This document shows positions 5,071 through 13,924 of a DNA stretch of 28,698 bases, one piece after another. The DNA is from Colwellia polaris. Its GTDB lineage: Archaea; Nanohalarchaeota; Nanosalinia; Nanosalinales; Nanosalinaceae. The position numbers were made by a program, and so were the translations under genes. Below the pieces are notes generated by a model. The model did no database searches, was not told the origin of the DNA, and saw only the letters and a program-made list of their open reading frames with translations. The stretch lies in NCBI GenBank assembly GCA_047617785.1, contig JBLGBK010000010.1:1-28698 (forward strand). The letters are read 5' to 3'. The first letter of the stretch is position 1. The number at the start of each line of letters is the position of its first letter.

Positions 5071-5514
5071 ATGAAATGCATCTACTGCGGACACGGAAAA
5101 ACCAAAGTCGTCGACACCAGAGATACAGCTCAGAAAACACGTCGACGAAGAGAATGCAAGAAATGCGGCCGCAGATTCACAACTTACGAAACAGCAGAAA
5201 CTTTCGACATACAAGTCGAGAAAAAAGACGGCGAAACAGAAGAATTCAAAGAAGAAAAAATCCGAGAAGGAATTGAAAAAGCCGTCAAAAACACACCAGT
5301 AACCGAAGACGGAATTGAAGAAATTGTCGAAGAAGTCAAGGAAGGAATTCGAGGACGAAAAAAAGTAACTGCTGACGAAATCGGAGAACTGGTGAAAGAA
5401 GCGCTTGTAGAACGAAACGAAGTTGCATACATCCGATTTGCCTCTGTCTACGAATCCTACGACGATATAGAAAGCTTTCAGAAAGAAGTCGAGGAACTGA
5501 AGAACAAAGCATAG
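5071..5514 (+). CDS. nrdR: transcriptional repressor NrdR (Zn ribbon + ATP cone)
   Basis: MKCIYCG..TKVVDTR...[17 protein letters not shown]; ATP cone VEKKDG..EEF; [10 protein letters not shown]; adjacent to an RNR gene. Confidence 0.96.
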
Positions 5515-5549
5515 ACGCGAAAATCATAATTTCAACAGGTTGTATTACG

Positions 5550-8513
5550 ATGAAAAACGACATTCAACAAAAGGCAGACTTCAAACTGCCTGTCAAACGT
5601 TCAACTGGTGAAACAGTTGAGGAAAGACTCACAGAAAATGCCTACGAACGAATTCTACCGGCGCGATACCTACTCAAAGACCAAGACGGTAATGTAACAG
5701 AAACACCGGAAGAAATGTTCGAAAGAGTCGCAAAAAACGTTGCACAGCCAGACAAAGAATACGACGATGTGGATTTCGAAGACTCTTGGCAAGAGTTCAA
5801 AGACCTGATGTCCCATCAGAAGTTCATGCCTAACTCTCCAACACTGATGAATGCTGGAGCAGAACTGCAGCAGCTATCTGCTTGTTTTGTTGTTCACCCT
5901 GAAGACGATATGGATTCGATCTTCAATACTGTTCACGACGCTGCAAAAATCTTCCAGAGTGGAGGAGGAATGGGATATCCTTTCCACCTACTAAGACCAA
6001 AGGGAGACATCGTCTCAAGTACAGGAGGAGTAAGCTCTGGACCGATGAGCTTCCAGCAGGTCTTCGACACTATGTGCGGAACGATTAAGCAGGGAGGAAA
6101 GAGAAGAGGAGCACAGATGGGAATTATGAGAGTGGACCATCCTGACATCCTTCGCTTCATCACAGCAAAGAGAAAGGAAGGCAATCTCTCCAACTTCAAC
6201 ATCTCAGTAGGACTGACAGATGACTTCATGGAAGCAGTCAAAAACGACGAGGAATACACACTGATCAACCCTCGAACCGATGAACCGTTCGAAGTCGCAG
6301 AAATGACTGCACAGTTCTACAACAACGATGAAGAATGGCATCCGGAAGCCGCTGGATCAGACCAGGGCAAGGACGACAACTTCTGGAGAGATCATGCATC
6401 AACCTTCGGAGAAGAGATCGAAGAGTTCGACATCAATCTTCAACCTGGCGAAGAGATGACAATCCCCGCCCGATTCATCTGGGAATGCCTCGTAGACGGT
6501 GCGTGGAGAAACGGAGAACCAGGACTCTTCATGTACGACGAAACCAACGAAATGCATAGCTTCGACACAGAAAAACACCCAGAACACAGTATCGAAGCAA
6601 CAAACCCTTGTGGAGAACAGCCACTTGAAAACTACGAAGCCTGCAACCTTGGACACATCAACCTCTCACTCCTTGTAGAAGATCACGAAGATGGAACAGC
6701 ACTAAGCTTCCCAGAATGGAAACAGGCACACCAAAGCGACTACAACTTCAAAGACGAACAGGAACTGCAGGAAGCAGTAGAAGAATACCTGCAGGAAGCA
6801 CTCGACATGGAAGAGTTTGAATACGTCGCCAAGACAGGATTCAGATTCCTCGACAACGTAGTCACCATGTCCGACTTCCCACTGGAAGAGATCGAAGACA
6901 CAGTTACAGATCTCAGAAAGGTAGGACTAGGATTGATGGGATACGCACAGATGCTCATCCAGCTCGGAGTACGCTACGGAAGCGACGAATCAATAGCAAT
7001 CGCAGAAGAAATCCAGAGAATCATCACACGCTTCTCCATAGAAGAAAGTAACCGACTCGCTGAAGTACGAGGAGAGTTCCCAGAATGGGAGAAATCCAAG
7101 TGGGCAAACCCAACAGAGTACGCAGAATGGTTCGAACAGTACACAGGAGGCCTAGAACCTGAAGAATTCGAAGATGGTCTCAAGATGAGAAACCACAACA
7201 CAGTAACCATCGCACCAACCGGAACAACCTCCATGATTGGAAACACCTCCGGAGGATGCGAACCAATCTACAATCTTGCCTACTTCAAGAACGTCGCAAA
7301 GGACATCCAAGGAGAAGACATGCTCGTCGAATTCGACGATTACTTCATCAAAGCACTGGAAGCAAACGATGTAGACGTAGAAGAAGTCAAGAGAGCAGCC
7401 CAGGAGAAGATGGAGAACAACGAATGGGACGGAGTAGAATCCATTCCTGACGATGTTATCCCTGCCGACGTGAAGGAAATCTTCGCAACGGCAGATCAAG
7501 TAAGCCCTGATGAACACGTTGACATCCAGGCAGCATTCCAGAAATACAACCATAGCGGGATCAGTAAGACCTGCAACTTCCCTAACGAAGCAAGCAAAGA
7601 AGATGTCCGCGACGCATACATGAGAGCTTACGACAAAGGAGTCAAAGGCATGACAGTCTACAGAGACGGAACAAGAGACACACAGGTCATGCAGACCAAC
7701 AAGGAGAACACCTTGACTGATATGGACAAGGTTGACATGCTTTCCGAAGTCATCGAAGAGTTTGGCGGAGCAGAAAGCCTGCTTCAATCCAACGAATTCG
7801 AAGAAGTAGTAGGAGACACAGACCTTGAAGTACAGGAAGAACACGAAGAAATCCAAAGTAAAGAAGAACTTGAACAGGAAGTCACACAGGAAGGTATCCA
7901 AGCCGACTCGCAGGACGCAGGACAGCACACATCCATGGGTGACAACCAGAAAGGAATCAAAGAACGACCAAAGGTAGCACAAGGAACCACACAGGAAATA
8001 GAAACAGCCTACGGAGACCTGTTCGTAACCATCAATAACTCCGAGAACAACGGACCGTTCGAAGTATTCGCCAACCTCGGGAAATCAGGAGGTTACACAC
8101 AATCCTTCACACAGGCACTCGGTCGAATGACATCACTCGCACTACGCTCAGGTGCATCAGGGGAAGACGTCATCAAACAACTGGACGACATCCGAAGCCC
8201 ACAGATTGCATGGGACCAAGGAACACAGATCCACTCCGTACCTGACGCAATCGCAGAAGCAATGAAGCGGCACATGAAAGTAGAGAAAGGAAGCCAGCAG
8301 ACAGTCGACCAGTACGACGCACCAGCAGACACACAAACCAGCGTCGACGCACAGACACAACCAAAAACCCAAGAAGAACAAACCGCAGACAGGCAAGACG
8401 CAGCACAGATCATAGCCAACGGCGACAACCCAGAATGCCCTGAATGCGGAGGCATGCTAGTCCTCCAAGAGGGATGTAACAAGTGCCCTGAATGCGGATA
8501 CTCGAAATGTTAG
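5550..8513 (+). CDS. nrdJ: adenosylcobalamin-dependent (class II) ribonucleotide reductase with C-terminal TSCPD domain and Zn-ribbon/Cys tail
   Basis: [38 protein letters not shown] (thiyl Cys), [24 protein letters not shown]; TSCPD region IHSVPDAIA; tail [19 protein letters not shown]. No ATP cone and no intein seen. Confidence 0.95.
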
Positions 8514-8679: not shown

Positions 8680-9198
8680 TTAGTTCAATGCTGATCTCTT
8701 TTTAAATGGTACATCTAGTGTTATTGGCCCGCTTCCAAAATGAAGTTGTCCTTCAATCTCTAAGTGAGACTTTTCTCCTTTCAATTTGTTTGAAAGAACA
8801 TCTACACCACCTATTGCGAATCCGGTTATATCTGCGTTTACTCTATCTCTTATTTGTCTTTTTCCTTTGGCTGGAATTACAGTGCTTTCTTGCATGCTGC
8901 CTTCAGTTATTTTTTCTCCATTAATATACGCTTTATAACTGATTCTGTCCAAGTTCGCAGGATAGGGGTTAGGATTCTCTACAGGTATCTTAAACACAAA
9001 TATTAGCCCTTGGGCTCCAATATCAATGTCTTCTAAACTAGGTTCTCCTACTTCCAAAGGTTGAATGACTCCTGAGGCGAACTGTCCGGTTATTCCTGTT
9101 ATATTCAGTAGTTGAGGCAATTTAGGCACCATTATAAAGCTAAAAATGATTATAGCTCCGCTAATCGCTATAAGTCGACCTAATCTCTTTTTGTTAAT
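8680..9198 (-). CDS. LEA type 2 (LEA_2/WHy) family protein with N-terminal membrane anchor; probable ATT start
   Basis: VENPNPYP..LDRISYKAYING...G...IPAKG...IEGQLHF..G..LDVPF fits LEA_2. The frame extends upstream of the 9132 ATG to ATT at 9198, adding NKKRLGRLIAISGAIIIFSFI, with AGGAG 7 nt before the ATT. Confidence 0.8.
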   Translation of the reverse strand: MNKKRLGRLIAISGAIIIFSFIMVPKLPQLLNITGITGQFASGVIQPLEVGEPSLEDIDIGAQGLIFVFKIPVENPNPYPANLDRISYKAYINGEKITEGSMQESTVIPAKGKRQIRDRVNADITGFAIGGVDVLSNKLKGEKSHLEIEGQLHFGSGPITLDVPFKKRSALN

Positions 9199-10308: not shown

Positions 10309-11058
10309 ATGAGAGAACGCAGTCCCGATGTTGAAGAACTGTATTCTGAAGCACGAAAGACAGATAGGTTGCATGTAGATAACTGGCGAGATGATGAGTT
10401 AGAGTGGAGTGAGAACTCTGAAGCGTATGAGGCTTCCAACTTTTTTGTCTGGGATGTTGAGCCCGGAAGGTTTAATCATTCTACTGAAGTGCCTGAGGAG
10501 ATAGTAGTCCTTCCAGATACTTATGAAGGATTCGTTGAGGGGGCTGGTTTCCTTGTGAGAACTCCGCTTTACGATGATCAGGATCTAGAAGATGCTAAAG
10601 AAGTTCTTGGGGAAGAAAATATTGTTGGAAAAGGTGGTGGCGGTTTCAGAGGAGTTGAGGATCTTGATACTCCGAAAGATGTAATGCAGCTACACCAGCT
10701 TGCTGACAGATTAGGTATTGATGTTTACACGCCTTCAGAATGGGATTATGGGCTTCCGCATCCTGAAGAATCAGGCAACCAAGTTATTGATGACTGGCGT
10801 CAAACTGCGTTCCAGGGTGTAGAAAACTTTGTTGACAATTATACTACAGATGCCACTGGTAGATGGAGTCGTGAAGTAATCGATGAGTTTACAGATAACG
10901 GAAAGAGAACAGCATTCATAACATACGCAAGCCGTGATGGCAACTACACTGAAGAAGACATGGAGTATATCAACGAGACAAATGAGGGCGGGTTATCCTA
11001 CCACACTCCTTTTACGATGAACCAGATCTTAGGAGGAAATGTACTTGAAGCAGACTAA
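10309..11058 (+). CDS. acidic hypothetical protein
   Basis: 249-aa ORF, ATG start with CTTAAA TATA-like box ~25 nt upstream, strongly acidic composition; no family recognised. Confidence 0.7.
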   Translation: MRERSPDVEELYSEARKTDRLHVDNWRDDELEWSENSEAYEASNFFVWDVEPGRFNHSTEVPEEIVVLPDTYEGFVEGAGFLVRTPLYDDQDLEDAKEVLGEENIVGKGGGGFRGVEDLDTPKDVMQLHQLADRLGIDVYTPSEWDYGLPHPEESGNQVIDDWRQTAFQGVENFVDNYTTDATGRWSREVIDEFTDNGKRTAFITYASRDGNYTEEDMEYINETNEGGLSYHTPFTMNQILGGNVLEAD

Positions 11059-11101
11059 AAAGAAAAAATAATTGAAGAGAGATTATAGTTTCAGGTATTT
11101 T

Positions 11102-11707
11102 TTATCGATCTTCTCCTAGAATGAGTTCTCCTTTGATGAATCCTTCGAGTGCTCTCTTGGAGTCTGCTTTAGATAGACCTGCTTCAGAAGCTATTGCTTC
11201 TATGAGTTCTGCTTTGTTCATAGGGCTTTCTTTCTGGTAGAGTCCTGTTCGTGCACTTCTCTTCGAGATCTCTGTTCCTTTTATTTCAAGGGTGTCTCCT
11301 TTTCTTTCTGCTGCGATAGCTACATCGGGGTATCCGTCCCCGTCAAGGTCTCCTAGATCAAGTCCGTTTACAGTTTTGGAAAGTTCTGCTCCTGCCTTGA
11401 ACTTTGGATCCTTTTTCTCAGCTTTGACAGCTGAAACTATTGTACCTTGGTTTGTTGAGATTAGCTCCGTCTCCGTTAAATCTCCTAGTCCGTCTCCGTC
11501 GCTATCGGAATCGCTGAAATTCCAAGTGTAGACTGCGAGCGCTACTTTCCCTTGTCTGATGGTGTTTTCAGGACATGTTTCTGGACCACATTTCTCTTGG
11601 TATAGCGGATTGCTGGCTTCAGCTCCTCGATCCTGATAAATTGGATTCGCAAGAACTGCTGTGCTCAAAGCCAGAGCGAGCGTCATAAATATTACGATTT
11701 TTTTCAT
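11102..11707 (-). CDS. secreted mosaic protein carrying HU fragments and FG-GAP, TSP3-like and NPxY motifs
   Basis: Signal peptide MKKIVIFMTLALALSTAVLA. Internal segments PKFKAGAELSKTVN, ISKRSARTG and MNKAELIEAIASEAGLSKADSKRALEGFI (HU-like), LGDLDGDGYPDVAIA (FG-GAP) and DSDSDGDGLGD. Confidence 0.75.
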   Translation of the reverse strand: MKKIVIFMTLALALSTAVLANPIYQDRGAEASNPLYQEKCGPETCPENTIRQGKVALAVYTWNFSDSDSDGDGLGDLTETELISTNQGTIVSAVKAEKKDPKFKAGAELSKTVNGLDLGDLDGDGYPDVAIAAERKGDTLEIKGTEISKRSARTGLYQKESPMNKAELIEAIASEAGLSKADSKRALEGFIKGELILGEDR

Positions 11708-11834
11708 GGCAAGGTTTACAATTGTTGCTACGCCTATAAGTAGTTATCTGTTTTTCTTTAATCTCTATTCTTGGCGGAATATTGTCTCTTGTTTACCTCA
11801 CAGTGATAAAAACTACTACAGATCTTCTGTTTTC

Positions 11835-12545
11835 ATGTCTTCAGAAAATAGTTTCGAAGCCCTTCCGGAACTTCCTACAGAGATGTGGGTTCCCGAGCTG
11901 CGAGATTTTGACATGCCTGAGTGGGGTAACGTAGAAGGTACTCTTTCCGGCCGTATCCGCAAAATGAATTTAGATGATGTTATTGAGGAGTACGTGTCCG
12001 AGGACGATATAGTAGTTGAAGTCGGATCCTCTAAAGGCTATACCAGTGTTGAAATAGCGAATATAACTGACGCACAGGTTCTAGGAGCAGATGTTCCAGA
12101 AGCATTTTCCAGAGGTACAGCAAATAATAGATACGGCAAGGGACCTGAGCCAGATTACGTTTCGGGTATAGCACCTTTCCTACCCATAAAAGATGAAAGT
12201 GTCGACGGAATTGTAGCTCTGAACTCTGTCAGCTATTTATGTAGAAATATCGGCTCGCTTGCCACAGATTACGAGGAGGGCGCATCCGAACAACAGCTTG
12301 AGAAATTGGAAGAGCTTCACAGCCAGAGTATGGCAAAGAACCTTCTAGATGACTTTGATCGGATAACTGGAGAAAGCGGCTACGTTATTCTAGGAGAACA
12401 GACCGACAGTAGCTACTTGGTTCTGGAGAAAGATGACAAAGAATGGAAAACTACAGATTATGGTTCATTCCCAGAACATGATGGCGAATCTCTTCACACG
12501 CGTTATCGCTCATGGATTCTTGACGAGAACGTAGAACATATATAA
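11835..12545 (+). CDS. class I SAM-dependent methyltransferase
   Basis: VVEVGSSKGYTS (motif I), VLGADV, LPIKDESVDGIVALNSV, GYVILGE. ATG 11835 is preferred over the ORF-track start at 11661, which overlaps the divergent gene. Confidence 0.75.
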   Translation: MSSENSFEALPELPTEMWVPELRDFDMPEWGNVEGTLSGRIRKMNLDDVIEEYVSEDDIVVEVGSSKGYTSVEIANITDAQVLGADVPEAFSRGTANNRYGKGPEPDYVSGIAPFLPIKDESVDGIVALNSVSYLCRNIGSLATDYEEGASEQQLEKLEELHSQSMAKNLLDDFDRITGESGYVILGEQTDSSYLVLEKDDKEWKTTDYGSFPEHDGESLHTRYRSWILDENVEHI

Positions 12546-13375: not shown

Positions 13376-13924
13376 ATGTCCGAATATGATTTCTCCAACG
13401 TTGATCCAGAAGCATTTGACTGGCTTGATTATGCAGAGGAATTCTTCAAGCACGATGGCGATTTTGACTACGGACGTGTTCGCACTATACCTGCGAGAAA
13501 TGGCAAATCCTATGTAAATATTGAAGACGAGTTCAGGCAGCTTGAGGAAATGTATGAGGCTGCTCCTGATAAAGTAGCAGAGCCACTGATGACTTTAGAA
13601 AAGAATGGCGAAGTTCGGGGTTTCTACATAGAACGAGTTGAAGGAGAACATATTACCGATTACTTTAGCGAGGGAAAAGGAGATATAGAAAGGCATCTAG
13701 AGATTTTAGATAAGGTAGAAGAGTTCGTCAATACTATGGGCGAAGAAGGTCTAGTGCACGGCGATTTATCGAACAATATTCTCTATGACGGGGAGCGCAT
13801 CAAAGTTATTGATCCGGTCGGTCAGCCCGAGGAACAAGAAGACTTTGAGATTTTCCGGGAACTAGACGAAGGCTCTTTACAAGTACTGGAGAACCGATCA
13901 CCGTATCTATGGAGCCAGAGTTGA
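13376..13924 (+). CDS. atypical protein-kinase-like protein (RIO/Bud32/APH superfamily)
   Basis: EFRQLEEMY (helix C), VAEPL, YIERVEG (hinge), GLVHGDLSNNIL (catalytic loop), IKVIDP (Mg-binding). Confidence 0.7.
   Translation: MSEYDFSNVDPEAFDWLDYAEEFFKHDGDFDYGRVRTIPARNGKSYVNIEDEFRQLEEMYEAAPDKVAEPLMTLEKNGEVRGFYIERVEGEHITDYFSEGKGDIERHLEILDKVEEFVNTMGEEGLVHGDLSNNILYDGERIKVIDPVGQPEEQEDFEIFRELDEGSLQVLENRSPYLWSQS

Follow-up and report, generated by a model that had tools for sequence, protein, structure and literature searches.

P0001 is a gene of the nanohaloarchaeal genome G000 that occupies positions 11102-11707 on the reverse strand of the window, by which we mean the whole stretch of 28,698 nucleotides analysed here. 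Its small product reads, in a single frame, as a putative export signal followed by two calcium loops of the FG-GAP type and three short pieces of the protein HU. We conclude that P0001 is a real, functional and vertically inherited gene, not an artefact, and that its pieces are ancient and ameliorated rather than recently captured, the mosaic being kept by selection on the peptides. The explanation that we favour is that of an exported calcium-binding binder on a conserved core, evolving by segment exchange; taken as a whole, we judge it about evenly poised between right and wrong. An initial annotation of this DNA had described a secreted patchwork of fragments from unrelated protein families and had attributed it to a fragment-capture process. 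That observation is partly confirmed and its interpretation partly supported. The reading frame and all of the strings that it listed are present where it placed them, it was correct that none is a whole domain, and the in-frame mosaic of sub-domain pieces is genuine.

The open reading frame (ORF) has 606 nucleotides and encodes 201 amino acids followed by a TAA stop codon. The N-terminus begins with MKK (two Lys) and continues with a 16-residue hydrophobic stretch and AVLA followed by NP; with a mean Kyte-Doolittle hydropathy of up to 2.62 over 12 residues, it looks like a Sec signal. The parts of the gene are as follows.

11102-11707, reverse strand: the whole ORF of P0001, single copy in the genome, with intact orthologues in genomes G032, G033 and G038
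11648-11707, reverse strand: residues 1-20, putative Sec-type signal peptide (sequence, hydropathy of 2.62, conservation in the family)
11555-11647, reverse strand: residues 21-51, family-specific N-region with NPxF/YxDRGAEASNxLYQ and two Cys; homologues have a DCDD..C motif or inserts
11423-11554, reverse strand: residues 52-95, first FG-GAP-type unit, with a strand, the calcium loop DSDSDGDG (invariant D66, D68 and D72) and strands
11366-11422, reverse strand: residues 96-114, HU C-terminal piece (HU-C) KFKAGAELSKTVN, occupying the 'FG' strand position of the FG-GAP unit
11309-11365, reverse strand: residues 115-133, second calcium loop, the FG-GAP repeat core GDLDGDGYPDVAI (PF01839)
11237-11308, reverse strand: residues 134-157, HU beta1-beta2 piece (KGD..ISKRSARTG), ending before the DNA-binding arm tip; a replaceable cassette in the family
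11135-11221, reverse strand: residues 163-191, HU N-terminal helices alpha1-alpha2, beginning at HU's own Met (PF00216)
11105-11134, reverse strand: residues 192-201, tail stub (..GELILGEDR), which homologues extend with a bacterial EF-Tu domain-3-like piece

The HU-derived pieces

The profile PF00216 (Bac_DNA_binding) matches residues 163-191 of P0001 at 28.7 bits (cut-off 22.4) over profile positions 1-29 of 90, and it matches 24 of the 25 family members at E<=1. The nearest relatives of the HU pieces belong to a large family of proteins of 200-250 residues with two HU domains, which carry the NCBI name 'HU family DNA-binding protein' and come from Halorubrum, Halobellus, Haloplanus, Halolamina and others. 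Residues 163-190 are identical at 24 of 28 positions to P0035 and P0039 (up to 83.8 bits), and residues 102-114 at all 13 positions to the C-terminus of P0035 (41.8 bits). The third stretch, residues 136-155, ends in ISKRSARTG (9 of 9 identical) and scores 34.6 bits. None of 300 shuffles of P0001 reaches any of these three scores, the best shuffle scores having a mean of 20.8 and a maximum of 30.3 bits. When the P0001 family was compared by hhalign with an alignment of the halobacterial tandem-HU proteins, the N-terminal helices gave an E of 2.7e-14; the halobacterial alignment (A2) consists of 30 of the 120 listed rows, selected not at random but because they had names or lay on long contigs. 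Canonical bacterial HU chains in the Protein Data Bank (PDB) reach only E 0.02 with P0001. Thus, the three HU parts named in the initial annotation stand far above shuffled controls (0 of 300 for each), but their source is the halobacterial tandem HU, not generic bacterial HU.

In P0001 the HU pieces follow one another in the order C-terminal, middle, N-terminal, which is the reverse of HU. The tip of the arm is absent: ..SARTG is followed by LYQKESP where the halobacterial relatives have RNPQTG. Further, there is no complete HU domain of about 90 residues in the order alpha1-alpha2-beta1-beta2-beta3-alpha3. Lacking both the arm tip and the complete fold, P0001 is not a DNA-bending HU. Nor is it a member of the halobacterial tandem-HU family. 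The two share the signature peptides (the helices at 24/28, ISKRSARTG at 9/9 and KFKAGAELSK.VN at 12-13/13) and an N-terminal leader of export type. The halobacterial proteins, however, have two complete HU domains in the normal order, an NPGKGDEAS..C linker, the RNPQTG tip and in many cases an RR leader, whereas P0001 has reversed sub-domain pieces, a Sec-type leader and two calcium loops. No RR motif is found in P0001, and its residues 21-95 resemble the halobacterial proteins no better than shuffles do.

The halobacterial proteins themselves merit comment. A motif resembling the RR of the twin-arginine translocation (Tat) signal lies within the first 45 residues of 93 of 152 of them; these 152 are the entries of P0026-P0120 and P0264-P0327 in which NKAEL or KFK occurs. 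For two of the proteins a TAT-signal match is among the precomputed Pfam annotations. In Burroughs et al. 2017 (PMC5499826), halobacterial HUs are described with N-terminal transmembrane helices, read as membrane tethers with HU inside the cell. Our reading of the leader sequences is that they are Tat signals rather than membrane anchors, and the halobacterial tandem HU appears to be exported. Some of the Tat-like tandem HUs, which are basic, are fused to a C-terminal cold-shock domain (P0284, P0289). We found no functional study of the halobacterial tandem HU in the literature.

A search of 70 Nanohaloarchaeota genomes found no whole HU gene. Eleven of the 70 have PF00216 matches, 13 in all, which are fragments inside other ORFs; within a frame uninterrupted by a stop, the longest covers no more than 55 of the 90 profile positions. 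The genome G000 holds only the HU fragment of P0001. Short open frames of 111 and 81 residues in G056 and G057 cover HU profile positions 2-56 and 4-56.

The FG-GAP-type scaffold

The FG-GAP profile PF01839 matches residues 115-133 at 23.5 bits (cut-off 22.1) and is matched in 25 of 25 family members, in agreement with the FG-GAP repeat first proposed for this gene. FG-GAP_3 (PF13517), which runs from loop to loop, is matched in 23 of the 25. The invariant residues of the second loop are G119, D120, D122, G123, D124 and D128. An exhaustive phmmer search with P0001 gave 843 proteins at E<=0.001; the best 150 of these are mostly proteins of about 450 to 5,500 residues, with 4 to 39 stretches that match residues ~56-160. 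Pairwise BLASTP is collinear over both loops with repeats of the giant FG-GAP proteins P0121 and P0124 (E 6e-6 and 1e-7). The HU-C motif falls exactly at the FG-strand position of the FG-GAP-type unit.

The motif DSDSDGDGLGD had been taken for a thrombospondin type-3 (TSP3) repeat. The profile TSP3_bac (PF18884) has no match in P0001 at E<=10 and matches 1 of 25 members (E 0.0043), and the motif reads better as the first of two FG-GAP-type loops. We regard the 'TSP3' and 'FG-GAP' parts, as far as their sequence tells, as the two calcium loops of about two FG-GAP-type blades. A PKD-type motif, WxFxD, fares no better: PKD is absent from the three Pfam families found for P0001 at E<=10 and from the matches of the family members. 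The number of unrelated families had therefore been over-counted, since three pieces come from one family and the TSP3 and FG-GAP parts form one unit. A match to the precursor HvfA of ribosomally synthesized and post-translationally modified peptides (NF050188) was rejected at 13.7 bits, the cut-off being 95.

Among known systems the scaffold is closest to the FG-GAP/VCBS proteins (FG-GAP_3; beta-propeller blades of integrin-alpha type), with which it shares two loops of the type DxDxDGxxD, hydrophobic flanks and the spacing of one FG-GAP_3 unit. Unlike the FG-GAP arrays, which in the giant matches show 8 to 39 matched stretches, P0001 has only about two blades, with the HU C-terminal motif before the second loop and a helical HU hairpin after it. 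It has no tandem array able to close a beta-propeller, the two loops amounting to one FG-GAP_3 unit.

Predicted structure

AlphaFold2 (AF2), run with the family alignment, gave a model with a mean predicted local distance difference test score (pLDDT) of 67.2 and a predicted template modelling score of 0.58. The best-modelled region is about residues 120-190, and pLDDT is 79-91 over residues 151-190. Strands are placed at residues 55-63, 77-85, 117-120, 129-136 and 139-146, and helices at 165-176 and 180-199. The ESM Atlas offered no usable feature match, all structure rows having a template modelling score below 0.3. A homodimer prediction for two copies of residues 21-201, again with the family alignment, scored 0.00 and is evidence neither for nor against a dimer.

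The P0001 family and its selection

P0001 has 24 homologues. Twenty-three of them cover 84-100% of the query at 48-69% identity and align collinearly; the other, P0025 (121 residues, 47% identity), covers 62%. The signal peptide is conserved across the family alignment, as is NPIYQ..NPLYQ, which has no match to any known family. The invariant columns are both calcium loops and F103-S110 of the HU-C motif. Of 50 genomes of the taxonomic family, 6 (G000 included) have a match to the family profile, and full-length copies are present in the single-contig genomes G032, G033 and G038. Both flanking genes are common to G032 and G033, and a RIO-like kinase neighbour is common to the window and G023. 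Profile searches with the family alignment found at least 4 loci on genome contigs and at least 18 on metagenome contigs. Among the matches listed in these contig searches L034 is the only family member, the others matching the HU N-terminal piece or the FG-GAP part only. Searches of viral contigs (IMG/VR) with P0001, P0264 and the family alignment found no relative. The P0001 family is lineage-restricted.

The ratio of nonsynonymous to synonymous divergence (dN/dS, Nei-Gojobori) is 0.16-0.24 in six of six pairs formed by four intact orthologues, and on this ground P0001 is a selected protein-coding gene. Synonymous divergence (dS) is 0.97-1.72, that is, saturated. For the HU-C piece dN/dS is 0.03-0.15. 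Two copies look broken: that of G023 (L011), at a contig end, is interrupted by an in-frame TGA ahead of the first calcium loop, and that of G014 (L012) has lost its first half and is split over two frames.

Authenticity of the sequence

The P0001 protein is found on 13 contigs, and the stretch compared is present in 17 sequencing runs, none of which is listed as a source of RNA. One contig of X1, which may be the source of this DNA, covers all 1001 nucleotides of it with zero differences. The junctions between the pieces are bridged by contigs of X16 (11166-11549) and X15 (11316-11900, with a single C>A at 11471), each with at most one difference. Short contigs of X1 and X14 match only 11373-11404, the HU-C motif, and diverge beyond it; they probably represent co-occurring homologues. 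The assembly of X14 breaks at 11227-11323 into unitigs of 31-72 nucleotides, one with 6 gap positions, which suggests local population microdiversity in the FG-GAP/HU-middle part.

Variable segments among homologues

The shared core of the family is the calcium-loop/HU-C part, and the N-region, the middle piece and the tail vary among homologues. In the N-region, 13 of 25 members have the DCDD..C motif, seven CCFDY, three a KPGRT piece and two a KPHS piece; a Cu-binding_MopE motif is present there in 3 of 25 (best E 0.001). The middle piece has K[RK]x[AI]R in 20 of 25. In three members, by pattern, an ..EDW.. piece stands in its place; G032 and G038 are in that group, where an unrelated ..EDWRLPA.. 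replaces HU beta1-beta2. Tails are of the form GE[IL][IL]L[GE]E in 13 of 25, extended with MVMPG in five, HU-alpha2-like in six and ELELAVE in two. Phage_T4_gp19 (tail tube) matches 2 of 25 members, with a best E of 0.0046.

An EF-Tu-like component is suggested by P0007, which matches bacterial EF-Tu in the PDB at E 4.6e-4; its residues 56-79 and 206-230 align collinearly with residues 288-311 and 332-356 of 5w75_A. P0001 itself has no EF-Tu match (Pfam PF03144/PF03143). EF-Tu-like parts seen by eye in P0017 were rejected, phmmer against the PDB giving no EF-Tu among 7 matches. In the broken copy of G014 an EF-Tu-like tail piece joins the HU arm directly.

The states of these modules form a reticulate pattern. 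All four combinations occur in 25 of 66 feature pairs among 24 sequences, the partial P0025 being left out. Identities also vary from segment to segment. P0007 and P0024 share 20 of 42 residues in the N-region, 64 of 119 in the core and 35 of 39 in the tail; for P0007 and P0021 the values are 56/63, 102/128 and 2/8, and for P0007 and P0002 they are 17/43, 110/129 and 15/17. To judge from the alignments, incongruence of this kind is what segment exchange between alleles, or else repeated replacement, would be expected to leave. The search among orthologues for a conserved scaffold with variable inserts, as first proposed, thus has a positive outcome: the core is shared, N-inserts, middle pieces and tails differ, and the identities are incongruent.

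Age of the pieces

The G+C content of the pieces is 0.40-0.56 and that of the genome 0.43, the highest values lying in the Gly/Asp-rich loops. No repeats flank the pieces; the only repeats, besides the similar calcium-loop stretches (11-19 nucleotides, about 132 nucleotides apart), are of 10-16 nucleotides. G000, which is 96.55% complete, has no match to RVT_1 (reverse transcriptase) at E<=0.01 and a Cas1-like match of only 15.3 bits (cut-off 22.3), these being the enzyme types searched. It also has no second copy or donor of the pieces. Because the G+C content is native, and border repeats, RVT_1, donors and viral relatives are all lacking, a recent or resident capture machine is not supported.

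Similar proteins in related genomes

The initial annotation had also suggested scanning the genome for other proteins with the same fragments. G000 contains no other gene that bears the modules of P0001, except an ordinary cold-shock gene on contig C9. Related genomes do have signal-peptide ORFs of comparable make-up: L013:1183-2076 (reverse), L020:1330-2076 (reverse), L017:1177-1800 (forward), L027:442-1464 (forward) and L028:1204-1689 (forward), in G011, G010 and G069. Two ORFs of G011 combine part of a tail tube (positions 18-102 of 134, E 9e-15, and 21-89 of 134, E 2.3e-9) with an HU arm (53-77 and 54-77 of 90), and the one of 297 residues has a SiaC piece as well. The ORF of G010 joins an HU arm to a partial cold-shock domain (CSD) that is close to the one at the C-terminus of P0284 and P0289, halobacterial proteins of the make-up Tat-HU-HU-CSD. 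In G069, an ORF of 340 residues has a tail tube (E 1.2e-18) and an HU arm (53-76 of 90); another, of 161 residues, has the C-terminal end of EF-Tu domain 3 (89-105 of 106, E 0.032), an eCIS_core piece with an HExxH bit (64-78 of 79, E 0.0018) and an HU arm (51-72 of 90).

Similar inserts are present in the Sec-signal tandem-HU proteins P0264, P0266, P0267, P0268, P0270 and P0290, and in P0303, by its name from a Nitrospinaceae metagenome-assembled genome (MAG). In P0270 an EF-Tu domain-3 piece replaces the HU arm (PF03143, 25 bits, cut-off 27) and is followed by tandem GHVTVLKRADHR repeats. P0264, P0266 and P0268 contain the motifs IGHVDHGK and KYSNIVLKRG, and P0290 has an eCIS_core bit. An EF-Tu-N-terminus-like stretch, labelled by eye, follows the signal peptide of P0303. 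The Sec-signal HU mosaics (P0264, P0266, P0268, P0270, P0290, P0303 and the ORFs of G010, G011 and G069) resemble P0001 in joining HU pieces to a signal peptide, and they combine these pieces with EF-Tu-like, tail-tube-like, eCIS_core-like or CSD pieces. Unlike P0001, they use other scaffolds, lack the FG-GAP core and can be aligned only in the shared pieces; P0270 has whole HU domains with a replaced arm. Literature searches, including searches on Nanohaloarchaeota with FG-GAP, tail tube or secreted mosaics, found no description of this motif-string pattern.

Genome context

G000 consists of 22 contigs and measures 787 kb. Proteins named Candidatus Nanohalobium, Nanosalina and Nanohaloarchaea share 83-89% identity with its EF-1alpha, which bears out the guess of a nanohaloarchaeon in the initial annotation. 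The ORF of P0001 stands alone, with a divergent methyltransferase-like gene upstream and a convergent acidic ORF of 249 residues downstream. Two further features were read from the sequence around it.

11733-11740, reverse strand: TATA-like CTTATAGG, 26-33 nucleotides upstream of the ATG; it may be an archaeal promoter, the mRNA then being nearly leaderless
11057-11071, reverse strand: T-rich tract between P0001 and its convergent neighbour; a possible terminator

Pairs of AT-rich inverted repeats bracket the whole gene, at 11074-11088/11756-11770 (15 nucleotides, 87% complementarity) and 11095-11106/11805-11816 (12 nucleotides, 92%); they may be due to chance. The neighbours at 5071-8513 (forward), 8680-9132 (reverse) and 13376-13924 (forward) include an NrdR-like repressor beside a ribonucleotide reductase that carries a TSCPD domain, a LEA_2 protein and a RIO-domain kinase, with no evident link to P0001. 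Elsewhere in the genome, an ORF of 4062 residues on contig C2 (from 30534, forward) has a signal-peptide-like start and 11 loops of the DGDG type, and is weakly similar to residues 58-129 of P0001 (E 0.03). It may encode a large surface protein of the organism.

Discussion

We propose that the P0001 product is a small Sec-exported protein in which a signal peptide and a Cys-containing N-region precede two calcium-loop units of FG-GAP type, with a helical hairpin at the C-terminus. Three of its short stretches derive from the halobacterial tandem-HU family, the first two taking the place of the strand that leads into a calcium loop or into the hairpin. The mature protein may then consist of two calcium-loop blades capped by an HU-derived helical hairpin. 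Stabilised by calcium outside the cell, it could serve as a binding or adaptor protein at the interface between symbiont and host; the invariant HU-derived peptides would be its functional surfaces and the HU helices a handle for packing or oligomerisation. The comparison of homologues indicates that the family evolves by the swapping of segments on the conserved core (N-inserts, middle pieces and tails, some of them EF-Tu-like or tail-tube-like).

Several observations weigh against this proposal. The AF2 model has a pLDDT below 50 in the region of the HU-C motif (residues 99-113), and a Foldseek search of the model against the PDB gave 0 matches at E<=0.001, the best being at 0.13. A single FG-GAP_3 unit cannot form a propeller by itself, and the reversed order of the HU pieces lacks a demonstrated structural rationale. 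The likeness to EF-Tu comes from one homologue (P0007) and the P0270 match below its cut-off (25 against 27 bits). A derivation of residues 21-51 from the halobacterial linker and of residues 52-95 from the second HU domain was rejected, 300 of 300 shuffles scoring as high. Lastly, the link to a host is circumstantial, and the function of P0001 is one that we infer.

Four other explanations were weighed against the exported binder. One is that P0001 is an eroded relic: an exported multi-domain HU array (a tandem HU, duplicated) would have suffered deletions and had its helices replaced by calcium loops, leaving only the most constrained HU islands, in an arrangement without meaning and with no cassette process. 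Indeed, the order C-terminal, middle, N-terminal is a sub-sequence of two consecutive tandem-HU units, and a short-query BLASTP search aligns residues 147-191 collinearly with the halobacterial domain-1 arm to domain-2 helices across a gap of about 45 residues (43.5 bits). Further, the conserved islands are invariant columns of the halobacterial family, and DPANN genomes are reduced, that of G000 to 0.79 Mb. We nevertheless consider such an origin unlikely. Residues 21-95 are similar to the halobacterial protein only at the level of chance, unrelated pieces stand at the same positions in homologues with identities that are incongruent by segment, and the secreted ORFs of 161-340 residues in related genomes, which string together matches of about 15 to 87 residues (HU, EF-Tu domain 3, eCIS_core, CSD, SiaC, tail tube), are too short for eroded multi-domain proteins. 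It is also possible to see in the peptides a mimic or decoy that copies exposed signatures of the tandem HU exported by a host, competing for its partner or docking onto it, be that partner an extracellular DNA matrix, the envelope or a receptor. Both proteins bear export signals, conservation in both families is highest in the columns of these peptides, and the identities of the peptides to the halobacterial proteins (24/28, 13/13 and 9/9) contrast with the E of only 0.02 to bacterial HU in the PDB. The Nanohaloarchaeota are, according to a preprint, obligate symbionts of extreme halophiles, which favours the same idea. Such mimicry is distinctly unlikely, however, given that the family is patchy (6 of 50 genomes) and thus not essential to the symbiosis, that Burroughs et al. 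(PMC5499826) make the halobacterial N-terminus a membrane anchor and keep HU inside the cell, and that similar secreted HU mosaics occur in P0264 and P0290, which do not look halophilic, and in P0303 with its Nitrospinaceae MAG name.

The notion of a fragment-capture process, with which this gene was first interpreted, would call for a dedicated machine (a reverse transcriptase, a Cas1-like enzyme or another) that places short stretches of foreign coding DNA, in frame, within a surface scaffold. Every piece is in sense orientation and in frame, the pieces measure 9-45 residues, and different secreted ORFs draw, in varying order, on one vocabulary (HU arm, EF-Tu, tail tube, eCIS_core, CSD). Active or recent capture is very improbable all the same: dS between orthologues is saturated while the peptides are conserved, the G+C content is native, no repeats flank the pieces, RVT_1 is absent and the Cas1-like match is below threshold (15.3 against 22.3 bits), the genome has one copy of the gene and no donors, and no relatives were found on IMG/VR viral contigs. 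Hardly tenable, finally, and largely refuted, is the view that P0001 is an ordinary FG-GAP surface protein with HU-like bits owed to chance or low complexity, or else an assembly chimera or a pseudogene. Residues 56-160 are collinear with the FG-GAP/VCBS repeats of giant proteins, the 'FKAG' of HU-C sits at the FG position of FG-GAP, and the copies of G023 (in-frame TGA) and G014 (two frames) look broken. Against this, 0 of 300 shuffles reach the three HU scores, the FG consensus is too weak to yield a 13/13 identity, the junctions are covered by independent contigs, and intact orthologues under purifying selection are present in three single-contig genomes.

Antigenic-variation loci offer a precedent for genes that are mosaic: there, segmental recombination of homologous cassettes from silent copies in the same genome produces mosaic surface-protein genes. 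By analogy, the P0001 family may be likened to them in its conserved frame, its exchangeable segments and the reticulate combinations among its alleles. P0001 differs from these loci in that it is single-copy, has no donors in the genome and draws its pieces from unrelated families.

The exported binder with exchangeable segments is of interest because domain shuffling usually involves whole domains, whereas the members of this conserved, selected, exported family are assembled from sub-domain pieces of 9-45 residues, which reassort between homologues. The pieces stay near-identical to their source families while their surroundings differ. Further, the strongest matches of an obligate symbiont are to a family exported by the likely host clade, which makes P0001 a concrete candidate for mimicry or docking at the DPANN-host interface. 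The finding also brings into view the tandem HU of Halobacteria, which is unstudied.

A wider conjecture, which we think doubtful and probably wrong as it stands, is that Nanohaloarchaeota and some other lineages export a 'motif-string' class of proteins. In these, short ORFs would show, on simple scaffolds, signature peptides taken from abundant proteins that are unrelated to one another (host-exported HU, bacterial EF-Tu, the cold-shock domain, the contractile-tail tube and the eCIS core). The peptides would be reassorted between genes by an undescribed sub-domain cassette exchange, and the proteins would serve as mimics or decoys at symbiont-host or symbiont-virus interfaces, P0001 being the member with an FG-GAP scaffold. 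If true, this wider pattern would represent a new mode of making secreted proteins.

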